59,163 bases of DNA from Bacteroidota bacterium. GTDB lineage: Bacteria; Bacteroidota; Ignavibacteria; Kapaibacteriales; UBA2268. How positions within the stretch are numbered: position 1 is the first letter of the stretch; each line of letters opens with the position of its first letter. The notes below the pieces were generated by a model. It was not told the origin of the DNA. It did not search any database and saw only the letters and a list, made by a program, of their open reading frames with translations. Location of the stretch: positions 1-59,163 of the forward strand of contig JAKAKE010000008.1 in NCBI GenBank assembly GCA_021824625.1, read 5' to 3'. Both the position numbers and the translations under genes were made by a program. Below, one piece after another: positions 12,438 to 56,189 of the stretch.

Positions 12438-12462
12438 AATATCTAATAAATAGAAAATTGAT

Positions 12463-13683
12463 TTAGACTTTTTCTTTCAATAATTTTTCTGATTTAATTT
12501 TATTTATTTCCTTTTGAATTTCTGTTTTTAATTCTTTTTCTGTCGGTAAATATAACATGTATTTGGAAGCAAATAATTGTTTACTGCCTTTCAGCACAGA
12601 GTATTTGACAATTGTTTCACTTTTTTCACTACATAAAATTAAACCGATTGTCGGGTTATCGTCTTTACCTTTTTTTAAATCTTCATACATCCTTACATAC
12701 ATGTCCATTTGTCCTATATCCTGGTGAGTTAACTTGCCGATTTTTAAATCTATCAACACAAAACATTTTAATAAATAATTATAAAATACAAGGTCAATAT
12801 AAAAATTATCATGTTCTGTAGTAATTCTTTGTTGACGCTCAACAAAAGCAAAACCTCTTCCAAGTTCTAATATAAATTCCTGAAGTTTGTCAATCAATGC
12901 TGTTTCAAAATCTTTTTCAAGATATTCAGATTTTGCTTTAAGATTCAAAAACTCGAGTATATAAGGATTTTTTATGAAATCATCGTTTTGTAATGTACTA
13001 CCTGTTTTCTTTACTTCTTTTTTTACTTTCTGTTTCTTTTGGCTTGCAAGTAATCTTTCAAAGTAAAAGGTTTGGATTTGGCGTTCTAACTGTCGAGTTG
13101 ACCAGCTATTTTCAATTGATTCTTTAACATAAAAATCTCTTGCCTTCTTACTTTCAACCCTCATCAATAAACGGTAATGTGTCCATGTCAATTCATTGCG
13201 TAAATCATTATTGATAACGAAACCAGATTGGCTGTTCAACACATAGCTATTTGTGTTTCTCTCGGATTGGTCACGCATCGCGTGACTTTTTGTTCTTTTT
13301 TTAGATTGTGAACGCACTGCGTTCACTTTTCCATTGAGCAACAACATAGATTGTGAACGCAGTGCGTTCACAATTGGGAAAGTTAAATAAAATTGTTTCA
13401 TATAGAAAAGGTTCCTACTATCAAATCCTTTCCCATACTCATTTGTAAGTTTTACTGATAATTCATTGATTATAAAGTCTCCATAATCTGCCTTGGTTTT
13501 CCCTTTTTGTTCTTCTTCAACTATTTTTCTTCCAATATTCCAATAAGCCTGAACCATAGCGAAATTAACAGCGTTGTATGAGTAGTTACGGGCTGTTTCG
13601 ATTATATATTTAATATTTTTATATAATCCCGAATCTATTATCTTATTATTTGGTCTTGATACAGATTTATTTTTACTTTTCAT
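12463..13683 (-). CDS. YhcG/DUF1016 family PD-(D/E)XK nuclease with an internal repeat insertion
   Basis: YWNIGRKIVEEEQ, LTWTHY, WSTRQLERQI, LELGRGFAFV, IDLVFYN and DIGQMDMYV motifs. Confidence 0.92.
   Translation of the reverse strand: MKSKNKSVSRPNNKIIDSGLYKNIKYIIETARNYSYNAVNFAMVQAYWNIGRKIVEEEQKGKTKADYGDFIINELSVKLTNEYGKGFDSRNLFYMKQFYLTFPIVNALRSQSMLLLNGKVNAVRSQSKKRTKSHAMRDQSERNTNSYVLNSQSGFVINNDLRNELTWTHYRLLMRVESKKARDFYVKESIENSWSTRQLERQIQTFYFERLLASQKKQKVKKEVKKTGSTLQNDDFIKNPYILEFLNLKAKSEYLEKDFETALIDKLQEFILELGRGFAFVERQQRITTEHDNFYIDLVFYNYLLKCFVLIDLKIGKLTHQDIGQMDMYVRMYEDLKKGKDDNPTIGLILCSEKSETIVKYSVLKGSKQLFASKYMLYLPTEKELKTEIQKEINKIKSEKLLKEKV
13226..13375. repeat. Array of four palindromic units inside the yhcG-like CDS
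   Basis: Units of GATT-[19-nt palindromic core]-(T/A)-rich start at 13226, 13265, 13304 and 13349 (periods 39, 39, 45). Confidence 0.85.
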
Positions 13684-13701
13684 ATTATGAATTAATCAAT
13701 T

Positions 13702-22903: not shown

Positions 22904-23380
22904 CTATTTCCCATTTCCCTTTTTCCTCAGCTTTTTAAAGAAATCTTTCAACAATTGAGAACATTCCTCTTCCAATACACCTTTTACAACTTCACACCTG
23001 TGGTTAAGCCGCTTATCTTGAACTATGTTATATAATGAGCCACAAGCTCCTGCTTTTGTGTCTGATGCTCCATATACAATTTTTTTTATTCTTGTTAATA
23101 CAATGGAACCTGAACACATAGAACATGGTTCTAAAGTAACATATAAAATCGCATTTATTAAATGTTTATAATTTATATGTTTAATCGCTTTTTTTATTGC
23201 AATTTTTTCAGCATGAGCAGTTGGGTCACTTAGCTTCTCAACCTGATTATATCCTCTTCCAATAATTTCATTATTGAGAACAATAACAGCACCAATCGGA
23301 ACATCTTCATACTTCGAGCATTTCTTAGCTTCCTTCAAAGCTTCTTTCATAAAGTGAGTATGTTTATTATTTTTATTCAT
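22904..23380 (-). CDS. tadA: tRNA adenosine(34) deaminase
   Basis: VPIGAVIV, DPTAHAE, YVTLEPCSMC and GACGS motifs. The start was moved out of the palindromic element. Confidence 0.92.
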   Translation of the reverse strand: MNKNNKHTHFMKEALKEAKKCSKYEDVPIGAVIVLNNEIIGRGYNQVEKLSDPTAHAEKIAIKKAIKHINYKHLINAILYVTLEPCSMCSGSIVLTRIKKIVYGASDTKAGACGSLYNIVQDKRLNHRCEVVKGVLEEECSQLLKDFFKKLRKKGNGK

Positions 23381-23394
23381 TTTTTTTCCTTTAC

Positions 23395-23465
23395 TGTCAT
23401 GCTGAACTCGGTTCAGCATCCAGTTTTATTTGGTTTATGGATTCTGAACCAAGTTCAGAATGACA
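23395..23465. repeat. Intergenic nested palindromic element
   Basis: TGTCATGCTGAACTCGGTTCAGCATCCA-N15-TGGATTCTGAACCAAGTTCAGAATGACA has 28-bp arms (25/28 complementary), and each arm is itself a hairpin. Confidence 0.85.
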
Positions 23466-23490: not shown

Positions 23491-24675
23491 CTATTTAAAC
23501 TTTCTCAAATTCTTTGCACCTGCAATCAATGTTTCATTGCTTTTTGCAAAGCAGAGGCGAAGCATTGATTTTCCTTCATCTGATTTTCCATAAAATACTG
23601 ATGGAGGAATAGTAGCAATTTTATAATTTTTCACAAGATTGATTGCAATCTCTTCATCATTAACCATGTCAGGAGTTACTCCTGACATGATATTTAATTT
23701 AGGTATGTCCACCATCATAAAATAACTACCTTTTGGTTTGTGAGCAGAAAAGGATGTTGATACCAATTCTTTCAGGAGCAAATCCCGCCGTTCAAGATAT
23801 TCCTTTTTAAACGCAGGAAGATATTCATCCAATCTTGAGAATGCATTTGCTATCGCATGTTGTCCCGGTGTATTCACTGCAAAAGTTGTCCATTGATGTA
23901 CTTTTCTAATGGATTCAGTAATCTTATCAGATGCAATAGCCCAACCTATTTTCCAGCCGGTCATACTGAATGTTTTTCCTGCTGATGAAATAGTAATAGT
24001 CCTATCCTTCATCCCCTCTAATGTTGCAATTGGTATATGTTTAGCATTATCAAATGTCAAAAACTCGTACACTTCATCGCTTACAACCAGAAGATTGTGT
24101 TTTATAGCTAACTTAGAAATAAACTCTAATTCCTCAAAAGTATATACCTTTCCTGTCGGATTGTGAGGAGTATTTATCACAATTATTTTTGTTTTTTCTG
24201 TAATTGATTGTTCCAGTTCATCGAAATCGAAATTGAAATCAGGTTTTTTAAGCGTAACATACTTAGGGATTCCACCTGCAAGAATAACATCAGCCTGGTA
24301 TGAATCATAGAATGGCTCGAACATAATTACTTCATCACCTTCATTGATTAATGCCTGGAATGTTGAGTAAAGAGCCTCAGTTGCACCGGCAGTTATAGTT
24401 ATTTCGCTGTCGGGATTCCGATCCATTCCATAATATTTTTTCTGTATATCCGAAATTGCTTTTCTCAGAGATAAAATCCCCTGAGTGGGAGCATATTGGT
24501 TTTTTCCTTCTTTCATTGCTTTGAAGGCTTCTTCCATTAACCATAGAGGACCGTCGAAATCGGGGAATCCCTGTCCGAGATTGACTGCATTGTTCTCGAA
24601 TGCAAGCCTGCTCATTGTGGAGAAGATTGAGGTTCCCATCCCTTTTATTCTATTCGCTGAAAATTCTTTGTTCAT
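23491..24675 (-). CDS. Class I/II PLP aminotransferase (YbdL/methionine aminotransferase-like)
   Basis: NLGQGFPDF, GATEA, NTPHNPTGKV, SDEVYE and SAGKTFSMTGWKIG motifs. Confidence 0.9.
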   Translation of the reverse strand: MNKEFSANRIKGMGTSIFSTMSRLAFENNAVNLGQGFPDFDGPLWLMEEAFKAMKEGKNQYAPTQGILSLRKAISDIQKKYYGMDRNPDSEITITAGATEALYSTFQALINEGDEVIMFEPFYDSYQADVILAGGIPKYVTLKKPDFNFDFDELEQSITEKTKIIVINTPHNPTGKVYTFEELEFISKLAIKHNLLVVSDEVYEFLTFDNAKHIPIATLEGMKDRTITISSAGKTFSMTGWKIGWAIASDKITESIRKVHQWTTFAVNTPGQHAIANAFSRLDEYLPAFKKEYLERRDLLLKELVSTSFSAHKPKGSYFMMVDIPKLNIMSGVTPDMVNDEEIAINLVKNYKIATIPPSVFYGKSDEGKSMLRLCFAKSNETLIAGAKNLRKFK

Positions 24676-52298: not shown

Positions 52299-55200
52299 TT
52301 AAATTTGTTCAATTCTTATTTTATCTGCGATTTTATTAATTTCTCTTTCAATATTATTCAAATCATCTATTGTCCAGTTAAAGGTATAAACCCAATCTTC
52401 ACTATTTTCCCCCTTCTTTAAAAGGGGATTCAGGGGGATTTCAGAAATTTTTGCTAATCTCGTAAATAACAGTCTTGCTTTAAAATTCTTTTGTTCAGGA
52501 TACAATTTCATTAGAAAATAAATATAAATTTTCATCTGCAATTCATAGTATTTTATTAAAGTATTTTTTACTTCATTAGACCCCACTCTATTTGTTTTCC
52601 AGTCCCAGACTTCCCATTCTCCACTCGCATTTTTAATTAATAAATCTGTTTTAACCAGAAGTAAATCATTTTTGTAAACCATTTGCAAGGTCTGTTCAGG
52701 TATAGATTCTTTAATATGCTTAGCATATAATTTTATTAATGTTGTATTTGCTACTGAACTACATTCACTGAAAATTCTACCACTTAATTTATTACTTATT
52801 TTTTTATTTGAATCGCTAATCACATTCTCAATTACTTTCCTCAAAATTTTATCATCAATACCGGCATCGCTTTTCAACCAATCCTTTATTCTTTCGAGAA
52901 CCGAATGAATCAGCGTTCCGGCAAGGCTTCCAACTACATCTTCATCTCTGGTTTTATCAATATGATTAATTGAATCATAATTTATATCATCAACGGAAGG
53001 CAGTCCGAATAAATATCTTTTTGCATATTCTTCTGAGTCATTTTGAAAAGTCATCAGTTTTGTTGCAGAGAAAACTTCATTATCAATATCTGATTTCACT
53101 CCAGTTAGAAGCATACACGGTTCAGGTTTTTGGTTTATTCTGCCATTTAATTCAAAGTCTGTTTTTTCTGAATAATTAAATAAGAATTTCACTGTATATT
53201 TAATTTTGAGAATATGAAATTGATTGTTGTGATAACTTTTCAATGAATCACAAATGCTCATTTCCTTTAAATCTCCGCTTAATGTTAATTTATCATCAAG
53301 TGATTTCATTATCATATAGAGTTCACTCTTTTGAAATCCTGTTTGTCTTTTTTTATTTATTGAACCACTAATAATTATATTATTTTCAGCCCTTGTCAAA
53401 GCAACATATAATAGTCTTTTAGATTCTGCCCATTCGGCTTTATTTTGTTTATCATTTGCTAATAAATAAGTGGGCGTAATTATTTCTTTATTTATGTCAA
53501 TAGTCTCATCCCTGGCAATCATTTTGAAAGAAAATCCAAAATCATCGGAAATTATATAAGGTGTATTCCTGGTATGTGAATTATCAGAATTATATAAGCA
53601 TACCGTATCGAATTCCAATCCTTTGGATGCGTGTATTGTCATTATATTCACAGCATTTTCATCTGATAAGAAAACTGCTTCGCTTTCAGTTAAATCTGCC
53701 GAAATTGTCCCCTTGACTTGTTCAACAAAATCATAAAGATTTTTAAAACCTCTTTTTTCAAAATCCCTGGCAATCTGAATCAACTTGTTGATGTTAGCTT
53801 TCATCTGTTTTTCTGAAGGCAATTCGGATATGACTGAATTCCAACTGCATAAATCAATTATTTTGTGAATTAACTGCGGTATGGAAATCCTCACAGCACG
53901 GTAAGAAAGCTCAGTTAATATTTTCAAAGCTCTTAGACAATTTTGTTCTTCTTTTGAAACAATATCTTTGCTAATTACTTTTTCTTCTATTGAATCACAG
54001 TACTTTTTGAACTTACTCCAAAGTGAATAACAATTTTTTATTTCGCCGGCTTTAAATAATATTTCATCAGAGATTTTGAAATATGGCGACCTCAATGCTG
54101 CTGCCAATGCTTTGTTGTCGTCATGATTGTGCAAAAAACTTAGGATTGAACATACATCGACAACTTCCTGAGACTTATAGAATCCTTTACCTGAATGTAA
54201 TATATAAGGTATGTTTTGCTCCTGAAATTCCGAAATTAATTCATCAAATCCTTTCCTTGACCTCCCGAGTATTCCGAAATCACTCCAATCCTTTCCTTGT
54301 TTAATAGCAAGATTCTTTATATATAATGCAAGGCTCTTAGCTTCACTTATTACTTCGCTTTCTTCACCTGAATTTTTAAAATCAGTAATTAAAAAAGTAA
54401 CATTGCCAAAATCTTTATTTGCCAAGTCAATTTCATTATTTATGTTTTCCTTTTCAATGATTCTTGATATCTCTTTATGGCAAACAAGAGAAGAATAGCT
54501 GACATCATATTCGGATTCAACTTTTTCGAATAATTTTCCGCACACTTTATTAACAAATGCCGCAGGGACAGGTGCCAGCCTGAATGTAACTGTAAGATTC
54601 AGATTACCAAATTTATTATTTACCCCATTTACCGTAGGGGTACTATTATCTTTATTTTCCCCCTTTTCTAAAGGGGGATTATTATCTTTATTTTCCCCCT
54701 TTTCTAAAGGGGGATTATTATCTTTATTTTCCCCCTTTTCTAAAGGGGGATTAAGGGGGATTACTAATTCTTCATAATCCCTTCTATTTGTTTCTGCAAT
54801 ATCCTTTTTTGCTTTTTCAAAAACCCTTACATCTGCATTTCTGAAGCCATAAATACTTTGCTTTTCATCTCCCACAACATAAAAATTCAGAGTTCCGTTT
54901 ACTTTCTTTCCTGTTAGTTCGGGTATCAGTTTTTTAACAATGTCATACTGAAGTTCATTTGTGTCCTGAAACTCGTCAATCATCAGATATTTTATTTTCC
55001 TTCTTATTTTTCGTACGACTTCATCATTATTTAACAATTCCGATGTTTTGATTAACTGGTCATCGAAGTCTATGCCTGCTAAAACTTCTTTTTCATCATT
55101 TATTATATCAATAACATCAGAAGTAATTTCAGTAAACAGTTTTGCAAAATGAAAGAGCTCTTTGTCTGACTCGCTGTAATCATAAGATGTGCAGATGGGT

Positions 55201-56189
55201 GCAATATCCTGAAGATTAATTAAATATTGATTAAAATAAAATATCTCATCTTCTTCTAAATATTTTTTTGCTGTTGTTAAATTAATGCTATATCCCGCTT
55301 TTATTACATTTTCATTAAAAAGTGTTTTTATTAATACTCCGGTTTTTAATAAAATATTTCCAATTATCCCGGTTTTCAAAGAAGATTTTATATCATTTAT
55401 AAATTTTTCAAATTCAACAATGATATTTCCAATTTCATTACTTGATAATTTAAGATTAGAAAATTTCTCGGGATTCCTTTTTACTAATAAATCTACTAAT
55501 TCAGATGCTTTTTCCAAGGTAATAATAGTATTCTCAGTCAATTTCCGAATTATTAATTCATCTCTGATTTGTAGAAAATCTTCTTGGCTATTTTCTTCAT
55601 AAAATCTTTTCAGCCATTCAAATCTTTCTCGTTTAAATAACAAAAACCTGATTCCATCCTCAACATTTTTTCTTCCGAATGTGAAAATTAATTTTCTTAT
55701 TCTCTCCCTCCTATCAATATTACCGTTTTCAAGCCATTCCTCCATTGCTTGGACAATTGAATTGGAATAAATTTCTTTCTTTTCATAATTGGTAAGTTCA
55801 CCGAAATTTGGCGGTAAATTCGTCTCGATTGGAAAACTTCTAAGTAGTGAAGAGCAAAAAGAATGAATGGTAGATATTGGAGTATTGTTCAGTTTATCTC
55901 TTATTCGAGCAAGTCTGATTTTTTTTGGAAGATGTGTTTCTTTCTCAATTCTATCTTCAATATTTTTTGAAACTTTTGCTAATATTTCAGATGCGGCTTC
56001 TCTCGTAAATGTAATCGCAACAACATTTCTTGGTTCAGTAGCTTTCTCATTGCTCATCAGAATATTAACATACCTTTGCTGTAAAACACTTGTCTTACCT
56101 GAACCTGCATTTGCTGTTAATGCAATATGCCTGTCAAAACTTAATGCTTCTAATTGTTCCGGAGTTAACTCTTTTTTCATCGTTTTCAT
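52299..56189 (-). CDS. addA: AddA/RecB-like UvrD helicase-nuclease
   Basis: ANAGSGKT, AITFT, TIHSFC, IDEFQDT, VGDEKQSIYGFRNAD, MTIHASKGLEF and YVALTRA motifs; C-terminal nuclease DLLI...WDWKT. Confidence 0.85.
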   Translation of the reverse strand: MKTMKKELTPEQLEALSFDRHIALTANAGSGKTSVLQQRYVNILMSNEKATEPRNVVAITFTREAASEILAKVSKNIEDRIEKETHLPKKIRLARIRDKLNNTPISTIHSFCSSLLRSFPIETNLPPNFGELTNYEKKEIYSNSIVQAMEEWLENGNIDRRERIRKLIFTFGRKNVEDGIRFLLFKRERFEWLKRFYEENSQEDFLQIRDELIIRKLTENTIITLEKASELVDLLVKRNPEKFSNLKLSSNEIGNIIVEFEKFINDIKSSLKTGIIGNILLKTGVLIKTLFNENVIKAGYSINLTTAKKYLEEDEIFYFNQYLINLQDIAPICTSYDYSESDKELFHFAKLFTEITSDVIDIINDEKEVLAGIDFDDQLIKTSELLNNDEVVRKIRRKIKYLMIDEFQDTNELQYDIVKKLIPELTGKKVNGTLNFYVVGDEKQSIYGFRNADVRVFEKAKKDIAETNRRDYEELVIPLNPPLEKGENKDNNPPLEKGENKDNNPPLEKGENKDNSTPTVNGVNNKFGNLNLTVTFRLAPVPAAFVNKVCGKLFEKVESEYDVSYSSLVCHKEISRIIEKENINNEIDLANKDFGNVTFLITDFKNSGEESEVISEAKSLALYIKNLAIKQGKDWSDFGILGRSRKGFDELISEFQEQNIPYILHSGKGFYKSQEVVDVCSILSFLHNHDDNKALAAALRSPYFKISDEILFKAGEIKNCYSLWSKFKKYCDSIEEKVISKDIVSKEEQNCLRALKILTELSYRAVRISIPQLIHKIIDLCSWNSVISELPSEKQMKANINKLIQIARDFEKRGFKNLYDFVEQVKGTISADLTESEAVFLSDENAVNIMTIHASKGLEFDTVCLYNSDNSHTRNTPYIISDDFGFSFKMIARDETIDINKEIITPTYLLANDKQNKAEWAESKRLLYVALTRAENNIIISGSINKKRQTGFQKSELYMIMKSLDDKLTLSGDLKEMSICDSLKSYHNNQFHILKIKYTVKFLFNYSEKTDFELNGRINQKPEPCMLLTGVKSDIDNEVFSATKLMTFQNDSEEYAKRYLFGLPSVDDINYDSINHIDKTRDEDVVGSLAGTLIHSVLERIKDWLKSDAGIDDKILRKVIENVISDSNKKISNKLSGRIFSECSSVANTTLIKLYAKHIKESIPEQTLQMVYKNDLLLVKTDLLIKNASGEWEVWDWKTNRVGSNEVKNTLIKYYELQMKIYIYFLMKLYPEQKNFKARLLFTRLAKISEIPLNPLLKKGENSEDWVYTFNWTIDDLNNIEREINKIADKIRIEQI
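52404..52441. repeat. REP-like hairpin element, CCCCCTTT family, locus e (in-frame in addA)
   Basis: ATTTTCCCCCTTCTTTAAAAGGGGATTCAGGGGGATTT encodes IPLNPLLKKGEN. Confidence 0.85.
54620..54762. repeat. REP-like hairpin element, CCCCCTTT family, locus f: 36-nt tandem array in-frame in addA
   Basis: Three perfect TATTATCTTTATTTTCCCCCTTTTCTAAAGGGGGAT units at 54644-54751, a tail to 54762, and a degenerate fourth unit at 54621-54642. Confidence 0.92.

Follow-up and report, generated by a model that had tools for sequence, protein, structure and literature searches.

A palindrome at one codon position of DUF1016/YhcG-family genes, repeated in frame in a Bacteroidota gene

Introduction

Palindromic DNA within reading frames is known in several forms. 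A parS site lies inside the parB/spo0J gene and is bound by dimeric ParB via its HTH; the sequence of parS hardly varies across bacteria, and several chromosomal loci carry it. Auxiliary operators inside genes, of which lac O2 within lacZ is an example, act together with a partner site at the promoter, and Rickettsia palindromic elements (RPE) are dispersed mobile repeats lying in frame in many unrelated genes. Coding inverted repeats of up to 284 bp are known from organelles, where they are numerous within one organelle lineage and are tied to no single protein family. To our knowledge, perfect palindromes are rare in protein-coding sequence, and those that stay perfect while the sequence changes across phyla are rarer still. 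The DUF1016/YhcG genes, a very common and uncharacterised nuclease gene family, carry such a palindrome at one codon position.

Homogenisation of inverted repeats and inversion of their spacers by template switching is a known mechanism, as set out in passages of PMC8604942 and PMC5941160. A passage of PMC9881135 describes enrichment of the DUF1016 family next to restriction-modification and BREX loci. The palindrome in these genes seems not to have been described before; it is absent from the passages on yhcG or DUF1016 in PMC9881135, PMC4316617, PMC11341870, PMC7967276, PMC13734603 and PMC11148124, and those of PMC4316617 mention palindromes and DUF1016 separately. The element, which is present in yhcG of E. 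coli K-12, offers a concrete handle on a family without a known mechanism.

Results

The window, the whole stretch of DNA analysed here, comprises 59,163 nucleotides from a Bacteroidota bacterium (assembly GCA_021824625.1, contig JAKAKE010000008.1). A DUF1016/YhcG-family gene (12463..13683, minus strand), identified by its ORF and by Pfam and PADLOC, codes for a 406-aa protein for which Pfam and the AF2 model indicate an N-terminal helical and HTH-like domain followed by a C-terminal PD-(D/E)XK nuclease domain. DUF1016_N (PF17761; E 1.5e-41, 142.1 bits, cut-off 32.8) matched residues 23-210, with about 50 residues inserted compared to the 137-position profile, and YhcG_C PDDEXK (PF06250; E 1.3e-55, 188 bits, cut-off 32.5) matched residues 235-389. 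Family membership is indicated by both domains scoring above their gathering cut-offs in the correct N-to-C order. PADLOC matched residues 14-400 to PDC-S02 (PDLC04807; E 3.4e-143), which is a candidate defence system only, and the antiphage role of the protein is putative. The PD-(D/E)XK strand-helix core lies at residues 278-376 of the AF2 model, and the best Foldseek matches of the C-terminal domain were the AdnAB nuclease, Hjc resolvases, NucS/EndoMS and Cas4-like proteins (E 3e-4 to 1e-2, with low TM-scores). Just after the array described below, a ParB-type HTH (PF17762) matched weakly (E 5e-4; 20.5 bits, under the cut-off of 22.6), and TIGR04285 (Noc) reached 16.8 bits against a cut-off of 315. 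A profile search of the PDB found no solved relative (best E-value 0.27). The protein was predicted to form a symmetric homodimer with a score of 0.74, compared to 0.03 for the best of three controls; the runs share at least 85% of contacts and the partner pLDDT was 66. In the benchmark of this score, 20 of 30 proteins solved as one-chain pairs attained the mark, as did 1 of 23 solved as single chains; these counts are only rough because the alignment used was our own. The gene stands by itself between yqeY and mutS2, inserted as a clean single-gene indel.

Within the gene lies an in-frame array of five units (13183..13379, minus strand) with periods of 39 to 45 nt, coding for residues about 102-167. 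The AF2 model predicts the array peptide to be a disordered or low-confidence insert that separates the helical bundle from the HTH-like part, with pLDDT below 50 at residues 106-146. Unit A (13350..13374; unit positions are given without strand) is the 5'-most in gene orientation and a perfect 12-1-12 palindrome with the core GTGAACGCA-S-TGCGTTCAC, coding for IVNALRSQ; its 12-nt arms (13350-13361 and 13363-13374) are 100% complementary around a 1-nt spacer. Unit B (13308..13326) is a perfect 9-1-9 palindrome with the arms of unit A and a flipped centre that gives Val for Leu. Its core is the exact reverse complement of the unit A core, since the two differ solely at the centre (C versus G on the plus strand). 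Unit C (13270..13286), GTCACGC-ATC-GCGTGAC in a 7-3-7 arrangement, codes for SHAMRD and shares the centre of units A and B, with three arm pairs altered on both sides compared to them. Unit D (13230..13248; SYVLNS) is a decayed copy. Alignment with single-unit homologs placed a fifth unit, outside the four first listed, at the canonical position of the family; this unit E (13189..13217; INNDLRNEL, preceded by V) is a decayed palindrome whose centre, 13203, lies 18 nt ahead of the Trp codon of LTWTHY.

When 35-mers were folded as single-stranded DNA and compared to 200 shuffles each, units A, B and C gave z-scores of -8.8, -5.1 and -4.2, with 0/200 shuffles folding as well for each. Unit E (z +0.2) folded no better than chance, and neither did unit D, given its z of -0.55 with 54/200 shuffles folding as well. 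At up to 3 mismatches the 19-mer core occurred at 2 places in the window compared to 0.01 expected, and 0/100 shuffles reached 2. The preliminary description of this DNA had reported four palindromes, of which A, B and C stand and D falls to chance level. It had also given the reverse-complement relation of B to A, the compensatory changes in C, the spacing of the units (39, 39 and 45 nt), the frame they keep and the peptides of all four, and each of these statements holds.

As sense-strand RNA, the array reaches a folding energy of -62.4 kcal/mol compared to -33.7 +/- 3.6 in shuffles (z -8.0). No T-run was found 3' of the stems, and no Rfam model reached its gathering score on the array, the only hits being miRNA-precursor models at 17-28 bits compared to 56-73. 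A same-genus ortholog (L005) has five units as here, with an identical unit A core, an unflipped unit B centre and a unit C that is not palindromic. Within units A and B, 16/17 conserved degenerate codons are identical between the two genes, compared to 193/292 in the rest of the gene.

The preliminary description had presented the array as a system peculiar to this locus; the palindrome is instead general to the DUF1016/YhcG genes sampled. The sample held 105 full-length homologs, 25 of them paralogs from the window's bacterial family and 80 the best of at least 598 GTDB-wide matches; it is non-random for the family and its related sequences are non-independent. In this sample, best 80 of at least 598 included, the palindrome encodes the motif preceding L(S/T)W(S/T)HY in homologs of many phyla, the longest perfect arm in the linker reached at least 8 nt in 61/105 genes, at least 10 in 38/105 and at least 12 in 31/105, and 74 of 98 distinct genes had at least one unit with at least 10/12 pairs. 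The element seems dispensable in some lineages, as the remaining 24/98 have no such unit. Elsewhere in each ~1 kb gene of the 105-homolog sample the median maximum arm was 6 nt. Nearly all single-unit genes with a clear palindrome have its centre 18 nt ahead of the Trp codon (19 for 3-nt loops). Judged from these alignments, most YhcG/DUF1016 genes, that of E. coli K-12 among them, carry the palindrome at one fixed spot of the reading frame, and the element is kept across deeply diverged subfamilies and many phyla.

Mean best arm was 8.39 nt compared to 4.44 in synonymous-codon shuffles (98 genes, 200 shuffles each); the observed best arm was reached by 0/200 shuffles in 38/98 genes and by at least 20% of shuffles in 27/98. 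Covariation was scored on 97 canonical 35-mers taken with no selection for palindromicity. Paired cells made up 78.4% compared to 63.1% in shuffles and 23-38% with the partner slid, double-side changes occupied 192 cells compared to 69.8 +/- 6.3, and the covariation score was 0.340 compared to 0.137, with 0/500 shuffles as high and several pairs showing all four Watson-Crick types. Synonymous sites of one arm track non-synonymous sites of the opposite arm in the homologs, and between paralogs the arm sequences differ with full compensation. The codon-shuffle excess, the covariation and the cross-arm tracking together indicate that symmetry is kept at the DNA level, beyond what protein selection would explain, as had been proposed from the single gene. 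Canonical 9-mers permit a mean of 10.3/12 pairs and 12/40 permit 12, compared to a mean of 7.1/12 and none permitting 12 among 200 9-mers drawn at random from the same proteins. The peptide at the canonical site is, by this comparison, shaped by the DNA. The residue two positions past the centre varies among the homologs (H, P, R, L, S). Mismatches in 66 well-formed units comprised 40 G.T, 28 A.C and 65 of transversion type, and an RNA wobble signature was absent.

The central base opens a Leu or Val codon. It was C or G in 74/78 well-formed units and A or T in 4/78, in the sample that includes the best 80 of at least 598 matches, and among Leu-NTG centres TTG occurred in 2/41 compared to 20.9 expected from codon use in the same genes. 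At an odd centre, C and G represent one duplex read from opposite strands, and flipped C/G centres with identical arms were found in separate genes as well as in units A and B. At the level of sequence, the symmetry of the DNA, the joint change of the arms and the restriction of the centre to C or G are thus all shown.

Unit number differs among relatives, as the preliminary description had anticipated. At least two in-phase units were present in 12/25 long-linker genes examined, and most long-linker genes retain at least one good unit. The proposed polarity of the array held weakly; of the 12 multi-unit genes, 8 had their best unit at the 5' end, 2 showed a tie and in 2 the 5'-most unit was worse. 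The yhcG gene of E. coli K-12 has three units, one of them a perfect 15-3-15, and E. coli strains carry 1-unit and 3-unit alleles, with breakpoints at a truncation inside the U3 right arm, an IS1 junction inside the U3 left arm and a deletion between units. Judging by such comparisons, tandem arrays arose repeatedly and units were duplicated and lost repeatedly. Pseudogene fragments retain near-perfect palindromes, one with a stop codon inside an arm and the opposite arm still matching. Among the few truncated N-terminal fragments in relatives, 4 of the 12 with a match to the palindrome (L119, L120, L121, L133) ended no more than ~20 codons past it, and the other 8 ended elsewhere. In this gene and several others, fresh perfect units lie next to a decayed canonical unit.

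A genome search for further copies of the core had been proposed, and an invertible or hypervariable site at the locus had been suggested; neither further copies in this genome nor signs of such a site were seen. At up to 2 mismatches only units A and B matched the core in the 3.58-Mb genome, and in three further genomes the units were unique or had one extra place with 1 mismatch. A partner site within 400 nt upstream of 65 genes gave no excess (11.40 of 21 compared to 11.37 and 11.34 in controls). With no partner upstream or elsewhere in the genomes searched, a classical looping operator is unlikely. No inversion or unit-number variant was found at the locus in contigs of four metagenome runs, which hide rare variants. 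The array is spanned by contigs from each of X2, X3 and X4, all with 0 differences, and X2 may be the source; in run X5 some stretches of the locus have no contig cover. Neither a recombinase nor flanking inverted repeats were seen beside the array, where the neighbours are MutS2-like and YqeY-like ORFs. Arm distance between homologs correlated similarly with the distances of three protein regions (0.46-0.51), and the partial correlations (0.27 for the HTH-like region, 0.11 for the helical bundle) favour the former only slightly and are confounded by phylogeny.

Discussion

We tentatively favour the reading that the palindrome is a selected dyad-symmetric DNA site read by the gene's own predicted dimer. 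The array would hold a 'hinge palindrome' five times as in-frame tandem copies, three of them intact and two decayed; this palindrome is a dyad-symmetric DNA element whose arms can reach 14-16 nt and which sits at a fixed DUF1016/YhcG codon position. The element may be a selected cis-acting site read with two-fold symmetry, either as duplex or as an extruded hairpin or cruciform. Its most likely reader would be the putative dimeric product of the gene itself, the sole factor always coinherited with a site that has different arms in different paralogs. Such binding might serve to park the nuclease or to load it, or might throttle the nuclease's own expression. Concerted changes of the arms, and the flips of the centre, would come from intrastrand template switching, units would be created and removed by slippage or unequal exchange, and in this gene the newer 5' units A and B would have replaced the decayed canonical unit. 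The C/G-only centre and the predicted symmetric homodimer would fit a self-target reading, and the lack of a second copy upstream or genome-wide limits the operator version of it. A stronger version, which we regard as rather doubtful, is a self-addressed nuclease whose symmetric dimer would bind, or when triggered cut, the hinge palindrome of its own gene as duplex or cruciform, with site and specificity co-diversifying between paralogs and extra units tuning dose.

The main rival, somewhat unlikely in our estimate, is a neutral and self-perpetuating coding palindrome, an ancient inverted repeat without function in a weakly constrained hinge. Template switching during replication would correct or copy arm mutations and invert the centre, and hairpin-promoted slippage would make and delete in-frame units. 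Template switching by itself would be expected to yield perfect Watson-Crick symmetry, flips of the centre and rearrangement breakpoints, and much of the evidence agrees with it, namely the mismatches without wobble preference, the identical arms whose C/G centres are flipped, both between separate genes and between units A and B, the predicted disorder of the array peptide with its variable residue two past the centre, and the absence of other genomic copies. The structural instability of the E. coli array, with its two allele sizes, breakpoints in U3 arms and inter-unit deletion, also agrees, as does survival of palindromes in pseudogene fragments even with a stop codon inside an arm. Homogenisation of arms with spacer inversion is on record in a passage of PMC8604942, and a passage of PMC5941160 reports that imperfect inverted repeats are preferentially corrected to perfect ones in Proteobacteria. 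However, an unpaired centre should drift under this explanation, since CTG to TTG is synonymous, yet TTG (2/41 compared to 20.9) and A/T centres (4/78) are scarce. Retention across deeply diverged subfamilies and many phyla, and the new perfect units beside a decayed canonical unit in this gene and several others, also argue against neutrality.

An mRNA hairpin appears improbable as an explanation. A coding-region stem could slow ribosomes, be a processing site or bind the protein itself, limiting output of the nuclease domain, and arrays would strengthen the effect; the stability of the array RNA (z -8.0) and the fixed position just ahead of the HTH and nuclease part are consistent with this. 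Against it, G.U is not favoured over A.C (40 compared to 28) and transversion-type mismatches are commoner (65), Rfam gave only sub-threshold miRNA-like hits, no T-run follows the stems, and a centre where C and G are interchangeable and U and A avoided is easier to reconcile with a duplex than with an RNA loop. The short in-frame palindromes and the unrelated spacers of near-constant length would match in-frame insertion of a dispersed mobile palindromic element (REP, MITE or RPE), or a CRISPR-like or invertible cassette. This reading is very improbable given that no further place in the 3.58-Mb genome matches the core at up to 2 mismatches, that the palindrome sits at a homologous codon in homologs of many phyla, that neither recombinase nor flanking inverted repeats were seen between yqeY and mutS2, and that variant forms are absent from contigs of the four runs. 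CRISPR-like arrays, type III toxin-antitoxin RNA repeats, integron attC sites and IS200/IS605 or REP hairpins were rejected for lack of their defining features, an intrinsic terminator for lack of a T-run, an internal start codon since CTG and not ATG or GTG dominates the centre codon, and a homing endonuclease as an idea drawn only from the clean single-gene indel and silent on the palindrome.

One synonymous base change at the centre, CTG to TTG, separates DNA-level recognition from protein and hairpin effects. If the self-addressed reading is true, a widespread defence-island family would consist of nucleases whose hinge-coding DNA is also their target. If the symmetry is purely mutational, the family would be an unusually clean natural record of template-switch homogenisation against coding constraint, and the frequent split or truncated annotation of DUF1016 near the palindrome would be explained too.

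Among known systems, lac O2 is likewise a dyad-symmetric site tolerated in a reading frame a few hundred nt from its start, YhcG binding being putative; it differs in its partner, for which no counterpart lies within 400 nt upstream in 65 YhcG-family genes. The parS site in parB/spo0J is also a palindrome inside the coding sequence of an HTH-protein gene (here again with putative binding), whereas the YhcG arms differ between paralogs, the site is unique in the genome and the ParB/Noc matches are below cut-offs. Like the YhcG unit, RPEs are palindromic DNA translated as part of a protein; the YhcG unit, in contrast, is unique within its genome and keeps a homologous position throughout the family. 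With template-switch repeats the palindrome shares arms that stay complementary as the sequence changes and a 1-nt or 3-nt centre in both orientations, although template switching leaves the fixed position in a protein family and the avoidance of T/A at the centre unexplained. The organelle repeats are alike in being perfect repeats in protein-coding sequence whose two arms both encode functional protein, keeping structure potential and coding together; the DUF1016/YhcG palindrome is instead single and short, and recurs at one homologous codon in many phyla with arms that vary and a centre of C or G.

The palindromic array of the window gene

The array lies within an ORF of 406 aa (12463..13683, minus strand) with Pfam matches to DUF1016_N (residues 23-210) and to the YhcG_C PD-(D/E)XK nuclease domain (residues 235-389), both far over the Pfam cut-off. 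The DUF1016_N match extends over 188 residues compared to the 137 positions of the profile, indicating an insertion of ~50 residues. Unit A (13350-13374) is a perfect 12-1-12 palindrome with a z-score of -8.8 for folding as single-stranded DNA, the measure used for all units. Unit B (13308-13326; z -5.1) is a perfect 9-1-9 palindrome that has the arms of A with the complementary centre base, and unit C (13270-13286; z -4.2) is a 7-3-7 palindrome with the centre of A and B and three arm pairs altered on both sides. The preliminary description of four palindromes held for these three units, including the relation of B to A, the matching changes in C and the periods of 39, 39 and 45 nt with their frame and peptides; unit D, however, folds no better than chance (z -0.55). 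A fifth unit (centre 13203), coding for VINNDLRNEL and placed where single-unit relatives carry theirs, was also at chance level (z +0.2). The 19-mer core of A and B occurs twice in the window compared to 0.01 expected. Conserved degenerate codons in the same-genus ortholog (80% identical) were identical in 16 of 17 cases in units A and B, compared to 193 of 292 elsewhere, and units C and D are non-palindromic in that ortholog.

The gene forms a clean ~1.27-kb single-gene insert (12438-13701) between yqeY and mutS2, at which no terminal repeats were noticed. Besides the window genome, one of three further species of the genus has the insert; the remaining two lack it, the empty site being a yqeY-mutS2 spacer of 45-56 nt (loci L114-L116). 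It is the only DUF1016 gene of its genome, with up to 21 matches in relatives, and it matches the PADLOC candidate PDC-S02. DUF1016 is reported to be enriched beside genes that undergo programmed inversions, within type I R-M and related loci (PMC9881135).

Twelve palindromes with arms of at least 9 nt were counted in the window, compared to 0-8 in 20 shuffles. Three exact 36-nt in-frame tandem repeats (54658-54750), each with a 9-3-9 palindrome (TCCCCCTTT tct AAAGGGGGA), code for NPPLEKGENKDN three times in a 1296-aa ORF (52299..56189, minus strand) that looks like a UvrD/AddA-type helicase-nuclease, a second instance in this window of a DNA-enzyme gene with in-frame repeats of a palindromic unit. 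Two related 9-3-9 palindromes 42 nt apart (23399-23461; ATGCTGAAC..GTTCAGCAT and ATTCTGAAC..GTTCAGAAT) sit at the start of ORF 22904..23419 and in the gap before the next ORF, and a perfect 12-1-12 palindrome (23665-23689) lies inside an aminotransferase-like ORF (23491..24675).

A palindrome at one codon position across the family

Homologs were sampled from 60 genomes of the window's order and from the best 80 of at least 598 matches in GTDB species genomes, the latter spanning Bacteroidota, Proteobacteria, Firmicutes, Actinobacteria, Planctomycetota, Verrucomicrobiota, Acidobacteria, Spirochaetes and others, resulting in 105 full-length genes with 98 distinct linkers (the stretch holding the unit or units). 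The palindrome is a feature of the DUF1016/YhcG gene family rather than of the window locus. In single-unit genes it encodes a short motif (e.g., IVNALRSQL, IRDALRHEL, IFQTLSGKL, IVHTLCAQL, IVPQAVAQL) preceding L(S/T)W(S/T)HY, and its centre is nearly always the first base of a Leu/Val codon, 18 nt 5' of the Trp codon. The best perfect arm in the linker was at least 8 nt in 61 of the 105 genes, at least 10 in 38 and at least 12 in 31 (maximum 16), compared to a median of 6 for the longest perfect arm per gene outside the linker. With mismatches allowed, 74 of 98 genes had at least one unit of at least 10/12 Watson-Crick pairs. The palindrome is present in the IPWGHN subfamily too, and E. coli K-12 yhcG carries three units, the third a perfect 15-3-15.

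That symmetry is kept at the DNA level, as had been proposed for the array, was borne out far beyond the window locus by codon shuffles and by covariation. The mean best arm was 8.39 nt compared to 4.44 nt in within-gene synonymous-codon shuffles. The observed arm was reached by none of 200 shuffles in 38 of 98 genes, and by at least 20% of shuffles in 27, these being the genes without a clear palindrome. Covariation was measured on 97 canonical 35-mers chosen by position only, ignoring symmetry: 78.4% of cells were paired compared to 63.1% with shuffled partners and 23-38% with slid partners, 192 cells were altered on both sides compared to 69.8 +/- 6.3, and the covariation score was reached by none of 500 shuffles. 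Some covarying pairs show all four Watson-Crick types. The arms are read in offset phases, so that left-arm codons pair through their third positions with the second positions of codons in the right arm, and the Arg codons CGT, CGG, CGC and CGA go with His, Pro, Arg and Leu, respectively, on the other arm. Where codon -1 specifies Ala, GCA is used in 35 of 39 cases, compared to 23% of Ala codons in the remainder of the same genes. The DNA also shapes the peptide: canonical 9-mers could be encoded with a mean of 10.3 of 12 pairs, compared to 7.1 for random 9-mers from the same proteins.

The centre base was C in 48 of 78 units, G in 26, T in two and A in two, and Leu-NTG centre codons were TTG in 2 of 41 cases compared to 20.9 expected from codon use in the same genes, numbers that overstate independence since the sequences are related. 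At an odd centre, C and G are one duplex seen from either strand. A C/G centre is what reading of double-stranded DNA with two-fold symmetry would be expected to leave, and it follows neither from coding nor from simple hairpin stability.

Arrays and structural change

Linkers longer than 30 aa were found in 25 of the 105 genes, 12 of which carry two or three in-phase palindromic units. Units of one gene often have a core in common, suggesting that units were duplicated recently and independently in different phyla. The 5'-most unit was the best in eight of the 12 multi-unit genes, tied in two and worse in two. The suggestion of a growing cassette array was only partly right, in that units are both gained and lost, their number varying among relatives and E. 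coli alleles.

The alleles of E. coli reveal the units as places of structural change. The 271-nt array segment was found in 3973 of 5426 complete genomes (at least 80% covered in 2858 of these); the junction of a one-unit allele, 78 nt shorter, in frame and with a single perfect 13-1-13 unit, was found in 209, and a truncation joined within the right arm of unit 3, beyond which comes a small ORF with a transposase annotation, in 722, these counts representing inherited forms and not as many separate events. An 80-nt, frameshifted form occurs in one strain; in other individual records, IS1 is joined within the left arm of unit 3 or the sequence from unit 1 to unit 2 is deleted. The annotated transposase (WP_000639208.1; 101 aa) replaces the 3' part of yhcG in the palindrome-truncated alleles (L135:3265-3570; L138:3140-3445), and could not be related to any insertion-sequence family. 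In unit 1, K-12 yhcG (L134:12828-13955) has His in place of the Arg, and Met in place of the Val, of the other alleles compared (L137, L139-L143), breaking the palindrome of that unit. After the array, Arg replaces the conserved Trp (CCCAGG compared to CCCTGG), and K-12 yhcG may be an impaired copy.

Contigs of two metagenome runs (X3 and X4) aligned to 13115-13330 carry a second DUF1016 gene (~85% similar) that has the unit-B palindrome with one difference and 73 letters compared to 112 in the window gene (units C and D); it looks like a relative with different unit content. Truncated DUF1016 fragments in relatives (L133, on G010:C28; L119 and L120, in G028) retain near-perfect palindromes: L133 has a TAG stop inside the right arm with pairing to the left arm preserved, and L119 and L120 end a few codons past the palindrome. 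Several PDC-S02 profiles have only 107-133 positions and match residues ~17-111 of the window gene, i.e., up to the palindrome, which suggests that many database members are split or truncated there.

Predicted protein

In the AF2 model (mean pLDDT 68.6) the array falls in a loop modelled with low confidence (residues 106-146), with a helical bundle on one side and, on the other, an HTH-like part that has a sub-threshold ParB-HTH match. The modelled nuclease domain is similar, at modest scores, to Hjc, NucS and AdnAB nucleases. Modelling of the complex speaks for a homodimer, with a score of 0.74 compared to 0.03 for the best of three controls; among proteins solved as pairs of one chain, 20 of 30 reached the mark, compared to one of 23 solved as single chains, counts that are only approximate because of the use of our own alignment. 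Runs had at least 85% of contacts in common (partner pLDDT 66), and the predicted interface is symmetric, following the long N-terminal helix and a portion of the nuclease domain.

Selected site or template switching

Our tentative reading is that selection keeps a dyad-symmetric site, whose reader would probably be the predicted dimer encoded by the gene itself. Several results count against a binding site: no other copy of the palindrome was found in four genomes searched, nor any look-alike in the 400 nt preceding 65 genes; differences between arms do not follow the HTH-like region in any clear way; and approximately a quarter of genes have no good unit. Neutral maintenance by template switching is the main alternative and only somewhat less favoured. 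All else is consistent with template switching: arms that are perfect, arms that recur in different genes with the centre flipped, and palindromes that persist in pseudogene fragments (one with a stop codon in a still-complementary arm). Intrastrand template switching on inverted repeats is described in two papers (PMC8604942, PMC5941160) and is taken as the likely route of arm and centre change. The selected site is nevertheless preferred over pure drive, if only tentatively, because of the centre constraint and the deep retention. An explanation outside those considered seems unlikely, and an mRNA hairpin slightly more so: mismatches in 66 well-formed units (40 G.T, 28 A.C, 65 transversion-type) gave no sign of wobble-pair tolerance, which argues against selection acting on such a hairpin. 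A dispersed mobile palindromic element or an invertible or CRISPR-like cassette is very improbable, and the invertible or hypervariable site proposed earlier is unsupported here, contigs of three runs bridging the array unchanged at the window's own locus.

Neither experiments on any family member nor a description of this palindrome were found in the literature searched. The element is directly testable in E. coli K-12. It resembles known coding palindromes and inverted repeats kept by template switching, and it is unusual in being fixed to one codon position in one widespread protein family.
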